Below, piece after piece: positions 1,657 through 29,279 of a stretch of 29,452 nt of DNA. The translations under genes and the position numbers were made by a program. The notes beneath the pieces are model-generated. The model did no database searches. It was not told the DNA's origin and saw only the letters and a list, made by a program, of their open reading frames with translations. The stretch comes from a virus (taxonomy: Duplodnaviria; Caudoviricetes): positions 1 through 29,452 of IMG/VR virus record IMGVR_UViG_3300025267_000081; one strand, 5' to 3'. Numbering within the stretch: the stretch's first letter is position 1; each line of letters opens with the position of its first letter.

Positions 1657-3027
1657 CTAGGCCGCCCACCGTTTGACCTTGATGAAATCTTTGTTCTGGA
1701 CGTACCCATAGCCAAAGCGGCTAACGAGGCCATATATCATGGCTTTTATGGCATGGTTGTTCTTGTCCTCGGGGGTATTGCCCACTATATTCCCTTCGCG
1801 ATCGGTCTTCCACCGGTAGGCGCGGGTCTGCCCGTCGAACGGGCTGGGAACCACGCCGAACTCCGACAGTATCCCGTCACATTTCGGCGAAAACACCACC
1901 TTGGACTTGTTCGTGATGGGATCTGGCTTGAGGAACCCTTTAAGTCGCTCCGTGCCTTCGTTGATGCGGATTTTCTGAGCGTCGAGGTAGATGCCTGTGC
2001 GTTCCATCCACATCTCTGCGGGCGCGGACATAGCCTGGTGTTGGTATCCTGCGATATCGATAGTGCCGGAGTGGACATCTTTCCACCAGGGCTTGGAGGT
2101 CACTATATCTATGATGGCGTCGGTTGTGAGTCCTTGCTCGTAGACCTCATCGAAGGCACAGATCTGGCCATTTATATCTTGCACGGCCATAACGGCATAG
2201 GCACCGGCGTATCCCGGGTCCATCCAGAGGTAGACTGGTTCTCCCGGCACCCATTCGGCGACTTCATCGAGATGGATATCTGCCCGGAACTCTCCAAACA
2301 CGAGGCCTGCGGGCGGGCAGGGTATGCCCTGGATGCGTTCCATGAAGAACTCATCGGAGGCTTGGGCCCTCAGCTTCTGGATTTCGGGGTCATCGATACC
2401 TTCGGGATACAGGAAGGTATTGGAATAGCTTGGGAGGGAGAAGCTCTGCTCGTCTTCGGAGGCACGTTGCCACGACGCGAAGAGTTGGGGATACCAGCCG
2501 AGGGAGCCCTCGAACGTCCCTGAGAGGAAGAGCCACCCTCTTTTAGGGGCCACTCTTCCCCGAAGCCTATAGAAGGTATCGAGATCTAGCTGTGATGCCT
2601 CGCATCCGAGGATACCGTCGGGGGCTCTCATGGCGAGGGTCCTGGGGTCTTTGGCGCTTTTCGTCTCTATGCGGGTCCCGTCCGCGAGGATAATGCGCCC
2701 CGGATCAACTCGTTTGGTAACTTCTGCAAGAAGTCCCAGGGATGCGAAGTCCTGGGCGAGGTAATCGAACTCTGCCCGTGTGCGTTCGTAGTCTGCCGCC
2801 ACCAGCCAATAGAGCCCATGCTCTTCGGTCTCAAGGAACCTGGACATAAGGTACTTGGATGCGACCATGGACTTCCCGGCCTGCTCACCGCCTGCGACGA
2901 TGGTAAACCGTTTACGGGAGTTGAGGATACTGGCCTGGAAGGGTGTTGGCAGGAAGTCTAGCTTGGAGAATATATACTCCGTGACGGCTGCGGGGTTGGG
3001 CCTTTCAGCCGTCGCGCTGGTTGTCAT
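1657..3027 (-). CDS. terL: terminase large subunit
   Basis: Walker A AGGEQAGKS, Walker B-like ILGCEA, motif III-like SGT, and a C-terminal RNase H-like nuclease region (WMDPG...DKNNHAIKA); 456 aa. Confidence 0.92.
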   Translation of the reverse strand: MTTSATAERPNPAAVTEYIFSKLDFLPTPFQASILNSRKRFTIVAGGEQAGKSMVASKYLMSRFLETEEHGLYWLVAADYERTRAEFDYLAQDFASLGLLAEVTKRVDPGRIILADGTRIETKSAKDPRTLAMRAPDGILGCEASQLDLDTFYRLRGRVAPKRGWLFLSGTFEGSLGWYPQLFASWQRASEDEQSFSLPSYSNTFLYPEGIDDPEIQKLRAQASDEFFMERIQGIPCPPAGLVFGEFRADIHLDEVAEWVPGEPVYLWMDPGYAGAYAVMAVQDINGQICAFDEVYEQGLTTDAIIDIVTSKPWWKDVHSGTIDIAGYQHQAMSAPAEMWMERTGIYLDAQKIRINEGTERLKGFLKPDPITNKSKVVFSPKCDGILSEFGVVPSPFDGQTRAYRWKTDREGNIVGNTPEDKNNHAIKAMIYGLVSRFGYGYVQNKDFIKVKRWAA

Positions 3028-10145: not shown

Positions 10146-10381
10146 CACACACTTGCACAACCAACTCAGAGTCAGAGTCTAATCCTATCTCGCGTTGTTG
10201 CGGGATAGAAGCTGATGACAACACGCCTCTCACCGTCTGCCCTCGCTGCGGCAAGCTGGCCGCCTGGGAATGTGGCGACTGTGGAATCACAGAGTGGGCG
10301 CACTCGGACCTGTATACCATCGACCTTGCTCACGATATGGGTGAGCGGGACCTCACAAGCCCCTTTGATTGGAGGAAATAA
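10142..10381 (+). CDS. Zn-ribbon protein
   Basis: SRCC...CPRCG...CGDCG. Confidence 0.7.
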   Translation: MTHTCTTNSESESNPISRCCGIEADDNTPLTVCPRCGKLAAWECGDCGITEWAHSDLYTIDLAHDMGERDLTSPFDWRK

Positions 10382-11286
10382 TGTGGCTGCACGTACCGTC
10401 AACGTCCTCAGCATCTGTTCGGGCATCGGAGGACTGGACCTCGGATTGCGAAGTGTCCTCCCTACTAGAACGGTGTGCATGGTGGAACGGGAAATCGGCG
10501 TCGCCTCGATCCTTGCGGCGCGCATGGCAGACGGCTCCATCGATCCGTGCCCTATCTGGTCTGACATTACGTCCTTCAACCCTCAACCGTGGCGTGGCCG
10601 AGTGGATCTCATCGCTGGCTCCCCGCCCTGCCAGCCCTGGTCAACCGCCGGCCAACAACGAGGAGCTGATGACGAACGCAACCTGTGGCCCGCAGTCGCA
10701 CGGATCGCAGAAGGCCTCGGGTATCCAGCTCTCTTTATGGAAAACGTCGCCAGTCGAAAGATGCTCTCCCACTACTACCACACCATCCGGCCCCAGCTTC
10801 TCGGCGTGGGCTACAGCACTCAGGAAGGACTCTTTACTGCGGCAGAAACAGGCGCTCCGCATAAGAGGCAACGACTCTTCTTCCTGGCCTACCGCAACGA
10901 GGCTATGGGGCACGCCGACACAGGACTCGGCGACCATGAGGCAGAACAAGTACGCGCAGGGGGGGAACCCTCTGAGCCTGGAAGCAGCCAACTGGCCCAC
11001 GCCGGCAGCGCGAGATCACAAGCAGTTCGATGGCGCGAAGAAGAAGAAGCCATCACGCCCGAGGGAACTCTACCTCTCTATCCGCCAGGACCAGGCGACC
11101 ACGCCGGATGGGCACGCCTGCTCGCACAAGTGCCTTCGGCTCAACCCGCTGTTTGTGTCCTACCTGATGGGCCTGCCCCCTCAGTGGCCCGACGACTCCG
11201 CGCCCTTGGCAACGCAGTCGTTCCGGCAGTGGGAGGCCTTGCTTGGATCATACTTAGTAGCCAGAAAGGAGGGAATGCTTGACTAA
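10381..11286 (+). CDS. overlapping alternative-frame methyltransferase chain (beta-type: TRD-like repeats and motif IX)
   Basis: 301-aa open frame from ATG 10381 with a GGAGG RBS; WPTA/WGTP/WPTP repeats and LNPLFVSYLMGLPPQW (motif IX-like). Confidence 0.75.
   Translation: MWLHVPSTSSASVRASEDWTSDCEVSSLLERCAWWNGKSASPRSLRRAWQTAPSIRALSGLTLRPSTLNRGVAEWISSLAPRPASPGQPPANNEELMTNATCGPQSHGSQKASGIQLSLWKTSPVERCSPTTTTPSGPSFSAWATALRKDSLLRQKQALRIRGNDSSSWPTATRLWGTPTQDSATMRQNKYAQGGNPLSLEAANWPTPAARDHKQFDGAKKKKPSRPRELYLSIRQDQATTPDGHACSHKCLRLNPLFVSYLMGLPPQWPDDSAPLATQSFRQWEALLGSYLVARKEGMLD
10383..11282 (+). CDS. DNA (cytosine-5) methyltransferase, catalytic (alpha-type) chain
   Basis: Motif I SICSGIGG, IV GSPPCQPWS, VI ENV, VIII HKRQRLF and X RLRALGNAVVP are present; motif IX is absent; GTG start at 10383. 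Confidence 0.9.
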   Translation: MAARTVNVLSICSGIGGLDLGLRSVLPTRTVCMVEREIGVASILAARMADGSIDPCPIWSDITSFNPQPWRGRVDLIAGSPPCQPWSTAGQQRGADDERNLWPAVARIAEGLGYPALFMENVASRKMLSHYYHTIRPQLLGVGYSTQEGLFTAAETGAPHKRQRLFFLAYRNEAMGHADTGLGDHEAEQVRAGGEPSEPGSSQLAHAGSARSQAVRWREEEEAITPEGTLPLYPPGPGDHAGWARLLAQVPSAQPAVCVLPDGPAPSVARRLRALGNAVVPAVGGLAWIILSSQKGGNA

Positions 11287-19264: not shown

Positions 19265-21934
19265 TTACGCTACCGCTATGACCGGCGCGACCTGAAATCC
19301 GTAGTAAATCAAATCCACTTCGGCAATAACTTCAGCCGTCCCAATCGATCCGCCAGCGCCGGGGTTTGTGAGGTCTACCGTGAACGATACCGTCTGAACG
19401 TATTCGCTCGTGTCCGCGGTAGTCATAGTGATTGTGCCAATATCCCTCCTCCCTGTGTTTCCAGCATATGCGACGCCCGATGCCGACTCGGCGATCTCGG
19501 CCACCGCCGAGGAGTTCCCCTGCGCTCCGTCTGTACTCATAGCGCGGGCGAAGTGGGCCTGGAACGACCTCGCAGCTTGGAAGTCGGACGCTGTCGCGTT
19601 GAGTGAATGTCCGACCAAGGCACGGACATGACAGGCATAGCCACCGCCGTCAATATTCCCCAACCCGTCTGTCGTTGTGATAGTAAAGACGGCTGTGGCG
19701 CTATTGTCAGCGATACTCGTCTTCGTCACGACCTGGGAGATATGGTACGTGCCACGGGTGATGTACGAGCCTGTGCTACCAGTGGTCTTGAGGAGCAAAC
19801 CATCGTCCCCGTCAATGGTCAAGATGCCGGCGGAAGTCTTGACGCTGGAGGCGGCGGCAAACGTTAGACTCGATGACGTCCAGTCATTACCAGACGCTCC
19901 GACATTGGTGATGCTGCCCCCTGAGCCCCCTATATCTATTACTGCCGCCCCTGAACCATCATGGGTGATCGTGAAGTCACTATCCACACCCATTCCAAAC
20001 ACCGCACTATCAGACAGTAGTTTGAGATCATCCCCGATGATGGCATCCCCCGCTACTGATAGGCCCCCGCCTGTCTGGAGAGAGCCATCAGTGGTGCTTG
20101 TCGCTGCTGTTGAGTCCTCAGTCTTGAGAATCCCCGTCGCGGTAACCGCACCGCTTAGGTTTATTATGTTCCCACTGATTGTTAGATCAGTACCATCACC
20201 CTCGATCTTCTCTCCATCATCACCAAAGGTGAGCCCAACATCGACAGGGATATTGATGTCATCAGTTGCCTCTAGCTCTATGTCGGCAGCAGAATCTAAG
20301 GTGACAGTAGTGCCTGCCAATTCAGCCGTGCCATCCGCTGTTATCTGAATATTAGCTGCTGCTGCATCGTCATCAGTGGTCACGATGCTCAATGCCCCGT
20401 GTTGGGCCATCGTGATGACAGCCGTGTCACCAGTATCCTGGTCGTCATGTATCGTCAGGGTTGTGTCGTCTACATTGAAGTCAAAGATGGTAGATGTACC
20501 GTCATCCATAGTGACGTTGCCGCCGTCAGCGGAGAGGACTATATCCAGCCCTGCATCCAGCGTTATCCCACCTACATCTGATACGGCTGATATAGAGCCA
20601 GTGCCGGTGCCTTGATCAGCGTGTATCTTAATGGTCTCGCTAGTGCCTGCATTAGCCCTCAAGTAGATAGCTGAAGCGGCATCATCAGAGGAGGTTAGGT
20701 TAACAGTACCCCCGGCAATATCTACGTCCTTGCCTGTAGCGGCATCTATGTCTACGCCACCAGCGTCTGATAGAAGCTGGATGGAACTCTCTGAGGTGCC
20801 TTGGTCTGCATGAACTTTAATAGTCTCACTCGTACCAGCATTGGCCCTAACATAGATAGCCGAAGCCGCATCGTCAGAAGAAGTTAGGTTAACGGTGCCG
20901 CCAGCTATGTCCACATCCTTCCCTGTGGCAGCGTTGATATCGACACCGCCGGCATCTGAGAGAAGTTGTATAGAGCTTTCACTTGTACCTCGGTCGGCAT
21001 GAATCTTGATTGTCTCCGATGTTCCTCCATCAGCAGTTAGCAGGATTGCACTAGCAAGGTTCGCAGTTGACTTAATCCCAATGCCTCCATCATCTGATAG
21101 AAGCTGTATTGATGCAGCCCCTTCAGTAACAGAGGTTCCTTGGTCATTAAAGAGGGTCATGCTAGAGGTGCTACCGCCGTCCACCGTGATGTTTACGGCG
21201 TTGGCCAGGTTGGCGGTACTGCGTACCCCCACGCCACCCGCATCAGAGAGGATAGTTACTGACTCTGCGCCCTCAGCAACGCTGGTTCCTTGGTCGGCAT
21301 GAATTTTGACCGTCCCGCTTGTGCCTGCATTCTCTCGTAGATAAATAGCAGCAGCAGCATCGTTGGTGGATACTAGGTCTATGTCCCCGGAGGATGCGAT
21401 GTCATAGTCTGTGACATCGTAATCAGCGGTGCCATTTACATCTAACGTCGTAGTAACAGCCAGGATTCCCCCCACAGTTACTGTAGACGCCGCCGCATTG
21501 GCCCCGTTGGTGATCGTCAGGTAGTCAATGATCGTGCCCGCACTGGCCTTGTCGGAGCCTATTGCCAGCGTGTCGGAGGCAGATGCCTGTATTCTCCAGC
21601 CATCACCCGCATCGTCGGCCTGGTCGGCAAAGAAATAGAGCGGGGCGGCTGCTCCCTCCACGCCCCGTATCTTCACTGAGGCTGCATCCAGGCCCGTGAC
21701 CGTGATCTCGTCGGACCAGAGGATGTACCTTACGCTAGAGCCCACTGAAATCTTCACATCATATGTGGCATCTAGAGAGGTTTCCGTGAACGACCATTCC
21801 CCGCTAGAGTTTGTAGTAGTGCTGGCTTCCTCCGTCGATGTGCCTGTTTCCAGCAGGGCTACAGTAGCCCCGTTAACGGCGGTGCCCGCATCGGTGAAGA
21901 CCTTACCGGATAGCTTGATGTCAGTTATAGCCAT
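19265..21934 (-). CDS. tail fibre / receptor-binding protein with internal repeats
   Basis: 889 aa, G/A/S/T/D-rich beta repeats (two 50-aa and two-plus 63-aa units); N-terminal transthyretin-like segment. Confidence 0.8.
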   Translation of the reverse strand: MAITDIKLSGKVFTDAGTAVNGATVALLETGTSTEEASTTTNSSGEWSFTETSLDATYDVKISVGSSVRYILWSDEITVTGLDAASVKIRGVEGAAAPLYFFADQADDAGDGWRIQASASDTLAIGSDKASAGTIIDYLTITNGANAAASTVTVGGILAVTTTLDVNGTADYDVTDYDIASSGDIDLVSTNDAAAAIYLRENAGTSGTVKIHADQGTSVAEGAESVTILSDAGGVGVRSTANLANAVNITVDGGSTSSMTLFNDQGTSVTEGAASIQLLSDDGGIGIKSTANLASAILLTADGGTSETIKIHADRGTSESSIQLLSDAGGVDINAATGKDVDIAGGTVNLTSSDDAASAIYVRANAGTSETIKVHADQGTSESSIQLLSDAGGVDIDAATGKDVDIAGGTVNLTSSDDAASAIYLRANAGTSETIKIHADQGTGTGSISAVSDVGGITLDAGLDIVLSADGGNVTMDDGTSTIFDFNVDDTTLTIHDDQDTGDTAVITMAQHGALSIVTTDDDAAAANIQITADGTAELAGTTVTLDSAADIELEATDDINIPVDVGLTFGDDGEKIEGDGTDLTISGNIINLSGAVTATGILKTEDSTAATSTTDGSLQTGGGLSVAGDAIIGDDLKLLSDSAVFGMGVDSDFTITHDGSGAAVIDIGGSGGSITNVGASGNDWTSSSLTFAAASSVKTSAGILTIDGDDGLLLKTTGSTGSYITRGTYHISQVVTKTSIADNSATAVFTITTTDGLGNIDGGGYACHVRALVGHSLNATASDFQAARSFQAHFARAMSTDGAQGNSSAVAEIAESASGVAYAGNTGRRDIGTITMTTADTSEYVQTVSFTVDLTNPGAGGSIGTAEVIAEVDLIYYGFQVAPVIAVA

Positions 21935-21937
21935 GGC

Positions 21938-22321
21938 CTACTCCCAGCTATGGTCCCGATATTGAAGAGCCTCTCGTATGAGCCAGTCGGGATCTTGTAT
22001 TAGCTTGTCATGCTCCAACATTATAAGCGTTATGCCTCGTCCGGCAAGTTGGGCCTTTGCCAGCATGTCCGTTCCCCGAGTCTCGATCCCGCTATGATGG
22101 CTATAAAACGACTCTTGGACCTGCATCGCCAAGTCGGGCGGGTTCGCAAACGTAAAATCAGCCGCGCTGCCTTCCATGCGAGGTGCATAGCTGAAATCCC
22201 TCCTGGGCTCTTTGCCCGCTCGTATCAACGCCTCAAAAGCCCTGTACGCTGCCTCGCTGCCCTGCCAGCCCTCTGGAACCTTAGTCGCGCTAGAAGTATA
22301 AACCTGGTATCCGTTATTCAA
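21938..22321 (-). CDS. DUF559/Vsr-like endonuclease-fold protein (degenerate)
   Basis: ADF...LAMQVQESFYSH...D...L.GRGITLIML pattern; TTG start. Confidence 0.5.
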   Translation of the reverse strand: MNNGYQVYTSSATKVPEGWQGSEAAYRAFEALIRAGKEPRRDFSYAPRMEGSAADFTFANPPDLAMQVQESFYSHHSGIETRGTDMLAKAQLAGRGITLIMLEHDKLIQDPDWLIREALQYRDHSWE

Positions 22322-22323
22322 AG

Positions 22324-22788
22324 CTATCCCTTTCCAGTCCGTCCTCGGGCCGTGCCTTCTGACTTTCGTCCCGAGTGCTCACGGCGTTTCAGGTTGTGGT
22401 CGCGCTTCCCGCTGGACTGCTCGAACAGCTCCTGGCCGACGGGCACCGCCTCGTCGATGGTCTGCTCGAACTCCTCCCCTGATTCGTATTTGCGAAGAAA
22501 CTCTTCGCTCACGAAGAACATTCATATACAGAAGCCGTCACGCTCGATGTCCTCGTGATGCCTCTCGCAGGGACAGATCTTTTTGCGATCCTCCACGGGA
22601 TCGCCGCTGAGAGGCATTCAAGGGCAGTACCGGTAGCCATGGGCCTTTTCGTTCTCGCCCAACCCCTGTTGGACGAGCTTAACCACCTCTGCATCGGGAA
22701 AAAACTCGTAGGGTCCTCGCGCGACGTATCTCTCAGAGAACTTTATGGCGCGCTCCAGCGCCTCCTCCTCGGTCAGCTCTCGGGGCAT
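22324..22788 (-). CDS. ftrC: ferredoxin-thioredoxin reductase catalytic subunit-like selenoprotein with two in-frame UGA (Sec57, Sec89)
   Basis: A single frame reads MPRELTEEEALERAIKFSERYVARGPYEFFPDAEVVKLVQQGLGENEKAHGYRYCP*MPLSGDPVEDRKKICPCERHHEDIERDGFCI*MFFVSEE..., matching FTR CPC...CPC...CHCMLF. The UGA codons are at 22618-22620 and 22522-22524. Confidence 0.9.
22492..22508 (-). promoter_or_regulatory. SECIS-like hairpin 2
   Basis: GCGAAGA-GUU-UCUUCGC beginning at +14 after the second UGA. Confidence 0.75.
22585..22604 (-). promoter_or_regulatory. SECIS-like hairpin 1
   Basis: GCGAUCC-CGUGGA-GGAUCGC beginning at +14 after the first UGA. Confidence 0.75.
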
Positions 22789-22872
22789 AAGACAACTCTT
22801 GTCATTGTCTCTTTCATCGCCGCAGCGCCGGCCCCAGCCTCATCCTCTCGTGCGACTCGCAAGAAGGGTCAT

Positions 22873-27039: not shown

Positions 27040-27786
27040 TTAGTACAGGTTCATCAACATTACGGTGTGATACTCGTCGTTCACACCAGCTTTACCATGT
27101 GTCCTAGCAAGAGCAGGAGTCGTATCTGCCCCAACGGCAAGTAACGAACCTGCGTGGTTAGAACTAGCACCAACAAGTGTGCCAACGGCAGGTGTTCCGT
27201 CCATAGCAGCTACACCCATGCCTGCAACCTGTACCCACCCAAAGTAGTCAGCAGCAACCTGACAAACTGACAGACCTACAAAGCGTCCTGCTACAGCAGC
27301 AGGAGCTACTACTATATCTTTATAAGGGCTCTTGATTAGACCCGCTGTCTCTGTTCCGTTAGTAACGGCAATAACTGTAGCATCTGGCTCATCAAGAGTC
27401 AGGGCTAATGTAGCAGAACCGTCAGCTTGAGGATGGCTCTTGATCTTGTAAAAGACCCTTGACCCCGCTGTTGAAAGCGTAGGTAAGTTGAAGAACAGAT
27501 ACCCCTCTGCATATAGATTCTTTGCAGCAGCGGTTGCACCAAGCGTGACGGTAACCGAACTAGAGCCAGCAGCAGTTGTTGCTACCGCTAGGTCTTCATC
27601 ATGGTTACCGGCAGGAGCCTCACTCGCTACAATCATTCCTTCCTCAATAGCAGTGCCGCCATTCTCTACATATCTGTACTTTCTACCATCTGCAAACACC
27701 ATCTCAGCCCCAAGGACTTGCCTCTGTGCTGATGTGGTTTGTTTTTCCCACCCATAACTTCCACTAATTGTTTTTGGAAACGACAT
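27040..27786 (-). CDS. capsid decoration / minor capsid-like protein
   Basis: DGRKYRYV...YFGWVQ..G pattern, close to the MCP; AAGGAGGT RBS before ATG 27786. Confidence 0.6.
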   Translation of the reverse strand: MSFPKTISGSYGWEKQTTSAQRQVLGAEMVFADGRKYRYVENGGTAIEEGMIVASEAPAGNHDEDLAVATTAAGSSSVTVTLGATAAAKNLYAEGYLFFNLPTLSTAGSRVFYKIKSHPQADGSATLALTLDEPDATVIAVTNGTETAGLIKSPYKDIVVAPAAVAGRFVGLSVCQVAADYFGWVQVAGMGVAAMDGTPAVGTLVGASSNHAGSLLAVGADTTPALARTHGKAGVNDEYHTVMLMNLY

Positions 27787-27814
27787 TTCCAAACCTCCTT
27801 TAAGGCTTAAATTT

Positions 27815-28400: not shown

Positions 28401-29279
28401 CTACGAGAAGGCAAGGTCGCCAATCTCTGCCCTGAACGCTGCGCCCCGGCTGTCGTCTAGCTCAAACACACCGTAGTCTGCGGTCATTACCAGTTCCGTG
28501 GCCCTGAGAGAGGCGTCGCGCTGTCGCTCAGTCCTCGTGTCTACGCTGGTAAGGGCCGCCATGGCCGTCTTGTCAGCGATAACGCCATATCCCGAGTCCG
28601 TGGTGCCAATCTTTGCGATATTCCCGTCCTCAAAAATGCTGACGCCGTTGATGGGGCGGAGCCCGCTGTAGAAGTTCTGCAACAGATCGACGCTCCAACC
28701 GCTCGTAAGTCCAGCAGCGGCAGCAGTGTCGGCAGTTGTAGCCGATGCCTTAGAAAGTTCCGCAACCGCGTTTGGGTGATGAATTATGTAAAGCTGGCTT
28801 CCAAACTTATTGGCCTTCGCCCTACTTATAGCGGCATGAACATTCGCCGTAGAGAATGTCTGGTTATCCGCAGATAAGATCGTGCCATCATTAAGGTTAG
28901 GCCACAGGGCAATTACGTCCGTGTCTTTTTTTCTCGCCATGCCGTCACCAAGCTGCCTTCCTATCATGGAGAAGACGTTGTCGGCGGCCTGCCGGACCAG
29001 CTTGTCAGTGAGGATAACCTTAGCGCCAACCTCGCTCGCCGTGAGATCAACCGTGGTCATGCCGATGTCTTCCTCGTCAATAATATCTTGGCCGTCTACG
29101 AGGTCAGACATGGACATCTGGCCAACCTTGGGGACGGTGACCTGCTTTGCCCCCTTCGGAAGGCTAAACTGCTCGATCAACGCCAGCGCAGGAGCGTTAT
29201 GCTCCTCCGTATACCTACTTGCCGCAAGAATGATCTTCTGGGCATTTTCCAGATTGCCCGTCGTCGCCGTCTGCGCCAT
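28401..29279 (-). CDS. major capsid protein (HK97 fold)
   Basis: 292 aa; AGGAGG RBS; V.VPK.G, LGDGMARKKD.D, IHHP, GV.IFE and ADYG motifs. Confidence 0.85.
   Translation of the reverse strand: MAQTATTGNLENAQKIILAASRYTEEHNAPALALIEQFSLPKGAKQVTVPKVGQMSMSDLVDGQDIIDEEDIGMTTVDLTASEVGAKVILTDKLVRQAADNVFSMIGRQLGDGMARKKDTDVIALWPNLNDGTILSADNQTFSTANVHAAISRAKANKFGSQLYIIHHPNAVAELSKASATTADTAAAAGLTSGWSVDLLQNFYSGLRPINGVSIFEDGNIAKIGTTDSGYGVIADKTAMAALTSVDTRTERQRDASLRATELVMTADYGVFELDDSRGAAFRAEIGDLAFS

Follow-up and report, generated by a model that had tools for sequence, protein, structure and literature searches.

In this study, a 29,452-nt stretch of phage DNA (the window) was analysed, and we observed that it carries a 572-bp fragment that is likely a piece of a Dehalococcoidia chromosome, recently captured and holding a complete ftrB gene for a double selenoprotein of the ferredoxin-thioredoxin reductase (FTR) family. 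The reading that we favour, with some reservation, is that the captured gene is intact, is likely read through at both of its UGA codons by the selenocysteine (Sec) machinery of the host, and is likely carried as a passenger. It comprises the 3' end of a host gene, an entire ftrB with two UGA codons and a SECIS hairpin after each, and the first ten codons of the host gene that follows. The kind of enzyme is already known and its phage-borne member is new; what this study adds is a documented capture with both alleles and with a chimeric start for the phage gene g127. The exact insertion site is seen both empty and filled, the filled form still bearing host stubs, and a host-type locus of 92% identity is available for comparison; such a before-and-after view is rare, and it makes it possible to measure what first becomes of a prospective auxiliary metabolic gene (AMG).

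Gene frame and selenocysteine codons

The initial annotation had described a 154-codon frame broken only by two UGA codons, and this was found on the minus strand, where 22788..22324 runs from ATG to TAG with in-frame TGA at codons 57 and 89 only and the product displays the motifs C55-P-U57, C72-P-C74 and C87-I-U89-M-F-F. Translation and homologue alignment agree with the further claim that the four cluster cysteines are intact and that UGA stands at exactly the two redox positions. The gene and its putative decoding signals are as follows.

22324..22788, minus strand: ftrB double-selenoprotein gene, 154 codons; C55, C72, C74 and C87 are predicted cluster ligands, U57 and U89 the predicted redox pair
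22618..22620, minus strand: putative Sec-UGA codon 57, read from the sequence; TGA in 96/96 distinct host sequences
22522..22524, minus strand: putative Sec-UGA codon 89, read from the sequence; TGA in 96/96 distinct host sequences
22585..22604, minus strand: SECIS hairpin 1, with a 7-bp stem and a loop of 6 nt whose second base is G, spaced 20 nt from the codon-57 UGA
22492..22508, minus strand: SECIS hairpin 2, with a 7-bp stem and a GUU loop, 20 nt after the codon-89 UGA

The TGA codons are not an assembly error. The gene is identical letter for letter in two IMG/VR contigs, a metagenome locus of 10.5 kb (L124) is 99.9% identical to the window with ftrB included, and single contigs of sequencing runs X2 and X13 cover the whole insert with 0 differences from the window. 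Random nonsense mutation had been called implausible, and the retention of both TGAs bears this out, as they are present in 17/17 genome loci (all Dehalococcoidia), in 80/80 metagenome loci (the best 80 of 344, one of which is this phage) and in all 31 over-cut-off matches among 301 genomes of the class. Ordinary gene calling misses or mistranslates such UGA-bearing cargo.

The SECIS hairpins were compared across 108 loci in which codons 14-102 are covered, and these gave 96 distinct host sequences. Hairpin 1 keeps 7/7 pairs in 82 of these sequences and 6/7 in the other 14, hairpin 2 keeps 7/7 pairs in 94, with one pair changed on both sides in four sequences, and the phage copy has 7/7 pairs in each hairpin. 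Synonymous sites within the hairpins are nearly invariant across the 96 host sequences; at conserved degenerate codons the majority-codon share is 0.89 within the hairpins (13 codons) and 0.55 elsewhere (47 codons; p 4e-6, which is optimistic since the sequences compared are related). The bSECIS model, as given in the accessible part of a 2026 review (PMC13188914), has a loop of 3-9 nt, a stem of 4-16 bp, G in the first two loop positions and a spacing of 16-37 nt, and both ftrB hairpins agree with it: the loops measure 6 and 3 nt, each stem has 7 bp and the spacing is 20 nt. The window contains 813 TGA triplets; a 7-bp Watson-Crick hairpin with G at the first or second loop position comes after 8 of them, and the two ftrB TGAs belong to these 8. 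Whole-region folding z-scores ranged from -2.3 to -0.06 and are unconvincing alone; it is conservation that carries the SECIS case. Moreover, selA, selB and tRNA-Sec were detected above cut-off in all five FtrB-bearing genomes; ARAGORN and Rfam searches of the window returned no tRNA and no Rfam match. By this sequence evidence, the two UGAs of the family are almost certainly read as Sec.

Classification of the enzyme

As judged from profiles, the ftrB product is a member of the FTR-beta/FDR family. It scored 76.8 bits against Pfam PF02943 with Sec read as Cys, and 229.5 bits (cut-off 160) over model positions 1-121 of the NCBIfam equivalog NF041072, 'FtrB family double-selenoprotein', so that the profile check proposed in the initial annotation turned out positive. 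A reading of the protein as a new enzyme did not survive: besides the equivalog score above cut-off, an FTR with two predicted Sec at both redox cysteines was described by Zhang and Gladyshev in 2008 (PMC2398784, in the part of that paper available to us), and the accessible part of PMC13188914 enters the family as 'CxU, 2 Sec'. No PHROGs family matched the ftrB protein, which is 71-92% identical to cellular members of its family. A profile search gave 149 proteins, of which 124 have all three motifs and 25 do not, many of the latter being fragments. The canonical CHC third motif of oxygenic FTRs is replaced by C-I-U here; Ile is present as had been noted, and the suggestion that a conserved His was lost did not stand, for His occurs at this position in only 40/124 motif-bearing homologues, which makes its absence ordinary, and Ile in 99% of 96 FtrB double-selenoprotein sequences.

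The structure predicted from an 88-row alignment, with Sec modelled as Cys, was confident over about residues 1-100 (pLDDT about 98 for residues 11-100). A fold search with it returned 12 FTR/FDR chains as its sole matches with E below 3, the best being 7pwe, a glutaredoxin/FDR fusion (rmsd 2.1 over 94 columns), followed by 4tpu, with 1dj7 also matched; the best sequence matches come in the reverse order, 4tpu and then 7pwe. These two FDRs, from Desulfotalea psychrophila (7pwe) and Methanosarcina acetivorans (4tpu), share with ftrB an equal spacing of the three motifs and a third motif without His, but in ftrB Sec replaces Cys at both redox sites and no glutaredoxin or rubredoxin is fused; where 7pwe fuses its glutaredoxin, the host of ftrB has a separate, neighbouring glutaredoxin selenoprotein. 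With the catalytic chain of the oxygenic-phototroph FTR (1dj7, 7bzk), ftrB shares the fold and six motif positions, but it has CIU for CHC and four additional residues ahead of the third motif, and no gene for the variable subunit of that enzyme was seen in the phage insert. The closest likeness is to the two-Sec FTR of NF041072, which has the same two Sec positions and SECIS elements (PMC2398784, available part), except that phage ftrB alone lies in a phage genome and is detached from its glutaredoxin neighbour. All other family members found have flanks, many of them short, without matches to the proteins of this phage.

Thioredoxin, for which the initial annotation proposed a reduction assay, is probably not the partner, since the best fold matches are glutaredoxin/ferredoxin disulfide reductases and the conserved gene neighbour encodes a glutaredoxin-like selenoprotein. 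Gene order and the 7pwe fusion point to the host glutaredoxin-like selenoprotein with a UGPC site as the likely substrate. The product would hold a [4Fe-4S] cluster through C55, C72, C74 and C87 and take electrons from host ferredoxin, and the U57-U89 pair would then reduce this UGPC protein, whose gene the phage did not take. Such a catalytic scheme draws on what is known of the family, including the available part of PMC2398784, and on the structures. The predicted diselenide beside an Fe-S cluster is a question for the known family and not for this phage. As a separate observation, many FTR-like matches with one TGA each and scores below the NF041072 cut-off (e.g. in G126, G108, G027 and G276) were noticed in genomes of the Dehalococcoidia class, and they possibly constitute a separate single-Sec FTR subfamily.

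Origin of the insert

The insert can be divided into ftrB and three other host-derived pieces, as listed here with the metagenome contig L125 for comparison.

22292..22863, minus strand: putative captured host-chromosome fragment, 572 bp, spanning the insert in full; the left end is known to within 1 base
22814..22863, minus strand: dead 3' remnant of the host upstream 133-aa gene; 1 difference in 51 nt from L125
22789..22813, minus strand: spacer of host origin that probably contains the ribosome-binding region of ftrB; 8/25 differences from L125
22292..22321, minus strand: opening 10 codons, with TTG start, of the glutaredoxin-like selenoprotein that has the UGPC site in the host; differs from L125 at 1 of 29 nt

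The host-type contig L125 shows 91.8% DNA identity to the insert over 572 nt, past both ends of ftrB, and its FtrB protein is 92% identical to that of the phage. Its gene order is tRNA-Val, 133-aa gene, ftrB and glutaredoxin (PF00462, U-G-P-C site), which is not that of a phage and is the same as in the named Dehalococcoidia loci L003 and L019; as the L125 record names no taxon, this contig is assigned to its host from gene order and tree position. In the tree, phage ftrB and L125 form a pair (support 100/94) nested among host sequences. The 133-aa gene lies upstream of ftrB in 79 of the 89 host loci with enough flank. The UGPC glutaredoxin was found within 450 nt downstream of ftrB in 62/82 host loci, all 62 with TGA, and about 1.1 kb upstream in 10/82, and it was not found in the remaining 10/82. 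From these data the insert is likely a piece of a Dehalococcoidia chromosome, of hosts that we take to be SAR202; among 251 genomes of the order no closer named donor was detected, the best being 81%. The glutaredoxin stub ends two codons before its own UGA and is fused in frame to phage g127, hence the glutaredoxin active site was left behind in the host. The captured ftrB duplicates an existing host gene.

The host UGPC glutaredoxin is itself worth recording. At L125:1128-1370 and at 61 other loci it falls below the cut-off of every NCBIfam model matched, its best scores being 67.3 against 88.55 for TIGR02196 and 43.3 against 66 for the UXX-star model NF041212, and the term 'UGPC' does not occur in the accessible part of PMC13188914. 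By sequence, ftrB and this glutaredoxin may represent a conserved three-Sec redox pair, perhaps one that is without a curated model. An apparent integrated element with repeated DNA-binding and HNH-like ORFs, recognised by eye, lies at L019:6957-11400, just past the glutaredoxin and tRNA-Asp.

Insertion site and distribution

The insert interrupts g127, close to its boundary with g97; both are conserved phage genes.

22873..23166, minus strand: phage gene g97, conserved, left flank of the slot, from sister-phage comparison
21938..22321, minus strand: phage gene g127, conserved and now chimeric; adjoins g97 in viral loci
22864..22872, minus strand: orphaned first three codons of g127 with its native ATG, now the beginning of a 10-codon dead frame

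The genes g97 and g127 abut in sister phages: among the 18 sister loci listed, the g127 start lies 3-5 bases beyond the final g97 codon in 14 and 7-31 bases beyond it in three (in L095 with GTG at 7, in L034 at 31). The insert sits three codons into g127 with 0-1 base shared at its joints, and the rest of g127 continues in frame with the captured TTG, which lies two bases past the ftrB stop; this in-frame start is what would have allowed the insert to be tolerated. No Pfam, PHROG or NCBIfam match was found for g127, which resembles DUF559/very-short-patch-repair endonucleases by language-model features only (Atlas features 0.94 to DUF559 clusters). Entry would have been by illegitimate recombination during infection, into a block of virion genes. 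No target-site duplication was seen at the insert. Aberrant excision from the tRNAs that flank the host operon is not supported, since no exact att-like match of at least 13 bases exists between those tRNAs and the phage.

Of 72 viral loci with both g97 and g127, ftrB occupies the slot in four (two contigs, this phage) and an unrelated 172-aa gene in three, the rest being empty; counted as distinct slot sequences, ftrB is in 1/43 and absent from 42/43. The 172-aa gene, which has no Pfam match, lies at L214:3111-3629 (also in L215 and L216) in another sister phage, and its presence indicates that the g97/g127 slot tolerates insertions. No ftrB-like match was obtained in the INPHARED set of 50,697 phage records, and two IMG/VR scans gave the same two ftrB contigs only. 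Recurrence across phage lineages was thus not seen and ftrB is known from one phage only, in viral searches that used short peptide patterns and may therefore miss distant phage-borne FTRs.

Both states of the slot occur in sequencing runs, 24 of which were found and 8 examined, all as assembled contigs, which drop rare variants. The gene is absent from near-identical phage elsewhere: in X15, X16, X19 and X20 (2015-2025, four studies) the phage flanks are present, partly at 100% identity, and in 4/4 of these runs a contig joins 22291 to 22864, skipping exactly the 572 bases. This empty-site joint has one shared base, three of the four runs also show a variant joint, and ftrB has no depth in them except for one bin in X20. 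The filled site is the only allele assembled in the three 2017 DNA runs X2, X10 and X13, with no empty joint there. One contig of X2 (2201 nt) and one of X13 (1450 nt) run across both joints at even depth and without a single difference, and X10 bridges each joint. In 14 runs, 87% or more of the sampled words are present; these are all marine metagenomes of 2017, probably from one campaign, and 12 of them bear a possible-source flag.

Phage context and host range

The surroundings of ftrB agree with the initial claim that the gene is carried by a phage, as PHROGs matches in the window include the terminase large and small subunits, the major head protein, an exonuclease and an endonuclease. 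Two of these are given here as context.

28401..29279, minus strand: major capsid protein, PF25209 and phrog_544
1657..3027, minus strand: terminase large subunit, phrog_2; 51% identical to a prophage gene in genome G114

At least 596 capsid relatives were confirmed in IMG/VR. A syntenic prophage of this phage family occurs in G114, a genome of the Dehalococcoidia class, at about 797000-816000 of its 1.36-Mb contig C4 (L204, L205), with identities of 49% for the capsid, 51% for the terminase, 47% for the structural-block gene g642 and 40% for g127. Relatives of g642 were also found in 9/251 genomes of the donor's order at 39-45% identity, and selA is present in 5/5 tested genomes with prophage or g642 relatives. 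No capsid match occurred in five FtrB-bearing genomes. The prophage-bearing genomes (39-51% identity) differ from those with close ftrB; Dehalococcoidia is likely the host of the phage, judging from matches to a capsid that was searched within this class. A large uncultured marine phage family is thereby linked to selenium-using Dehalococcoidia.

Recency of the capture

Between the phage and L125, ftrB differs at 24% of synonymous sites, but in the functionless 51-nt remnant a single position differs, with no effect on the amino acid in the host reading frame; at a rate of 0.2 the binomial p is 1.6e-4. Other hosts show no more than 78-83% identity in this stretch, so it is not intrinsically invariant. 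That the host fragments are undecayed indicates a recent capture, by the time of which the host lineages had already accumulated almost all of the divergence; the low core pN/pS of 0.054 is therefore silent on selection in the phage, and the pN/pS of 0.14 for ftrB against L125 reflects host history, the phage copies being identical to one another. To regard the gene as phage-adapted is at odds with a very recent host-chromosome capture in one strain lineage that near-identical phage lack.

Auxiliary metabolic genes, or morons, are host metabolic genes carried within phage genomes. Phage ftrB resembles them in being host-derived with viral genes on both sides; it differs as a single recent capture that is polymorphic in one phage and has not yet lost its host stubs. 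Of an AMG one would expect recurrence and selection. Viral members of the RNR, plastocyanin and SOD families are named in the accessible part of PMC9402790, which gives few or no viral sequences for other families in GOS. No paper on a phage-borne FtrB or a bacteriophage selenoprotein was found in the literature searched, which mostly left subscription journals outside its scope.

Competing explanations

The same capture may already be a selected AMG, in which an extra FtrB with both Sec would raise electron flow from ferredoxin to glutaredoxin, for dNTP supply or redox protection, and bring local dominance; we hold this to be possible but rather unlikely. The whole gene, both SECIS and the start region are intact, the filled allele is the only one assembled in X2, X10 and X13, and insert-bearing phage is held by 14 runs. 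An FDR feeding a ribonucleotide reductase is reportedly on record (Wei et al. 2015, cited in PMC11846895). In RNA run X24, one 159-nt contig (share 0.04) matches ftrB with 1 difference; it is a weak sign, since phage and host copies are indistinguishable in it and it could be a host copy or DNA, and it may be the transcript of the true donor. The predominance of the filled allele in three DNA runs speaks against a passenger and could reflect selection rather than drift. However, recency alone predicts intactness, and the gene belongs to a single lineage (the two IMG/VR contigs, 0 in INPHARED, one of the distinct slots) and is missing from the same phage in four other studies. Its partner gene was cut off, it stands among virion and not replication genes, and no reductase, thioredoxin or ferredoxin gene was detected among the scanned ORFs or in a crude motif scan covering about 33.7 kb of the 37.6-kb phage contig. 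The passenger reading is therefore preferred, in which ftrB would be co-transcribed with the virion-gene block and decoded by SelB and tRNA-Sec of the host. An improbable alternative is that no full selenoprotein is made during infection, through poor transcription or termination at UGA, and that the capture matters only for the start codon from which g127 now begins. Near ftrB, neither a promoter nor a terminator signal rose above chance, with no sigma-70-like promoter in the scanned 1.5 kb upstream, the current host is likely rather than certain, and two Sec codons lower the full-length yield; but ftrB lies on the same strand as the virion block, tightly packed within it, its host start region and both SECIS are perfect in pairing, and candidate hosts have selA.

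Two technical readings carry far less weight. A phage/host chimera from assembly or amplification is highly improbable. The joints share almost no bases and the evidence consists of contigs from holders that are perhaps all of one campaign, yet identical joints recur in separate runs, with single X2 and X13 contigs across both and X10 across each, three further assemblies have the same joints, and the right joint is in frame with g127. The reading of TGA as Trp (code 4), or of ftrB as a pseudogene, was rejected and we give it practically no credence. Nine database homologues (P0002-P0010) are written with Trp at both Sec positions; these entries are best read as gene-caller artefacts, likely from code 4 calls. 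Against it, TGA terminates 14/36 hand-picked phage genes of the window, which indicates a standard code, Cys stands at both redox positions in 117/124 motif-bearing homologues, the SECIS hairpins are present, and the core pN/pS reveals strong constraint past both TGAs, so that the decay of homologues beyond UGA feared in the initial annotation is not seen.

Additionally, the start of g127 might be translationally coupled to ftrB, the protein being made only once ribosomes have passed two Sec codons. The ribosome-binding site of g127 lies inside the last codons of ftrB and the host operon is laid out alike, which suggests coupling, a proposal that we consider unlikely. If true, a late phage gene would be under the control of the selenium supply of the host, and the phage would also make a diselenide Fe-S reductase. 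In that case ftrB would be an AMG observed at its very origin, of which natural samples contain both alleles.

Other features of the phage genome

Three further features of the window were noticed. A 305-aa ORF (10369-11286) covers nearly all of a DNA cytosine methyltransferase ORF (PF00145, 10215-11282), both being on the plus strand in different frames. The gene g250 (27040-27792, minus strand) stands apart with a GC3 of 0.37 where most genes are near 0.7; it shares 34-91% identity with sister phages, values that do not follow those of the capsid, and is likely a swapped module. Finally, the 889-aa gene g889 contains at 20606-21016 an internal repeat of about 190 bp, the copies of which are 74% identical.
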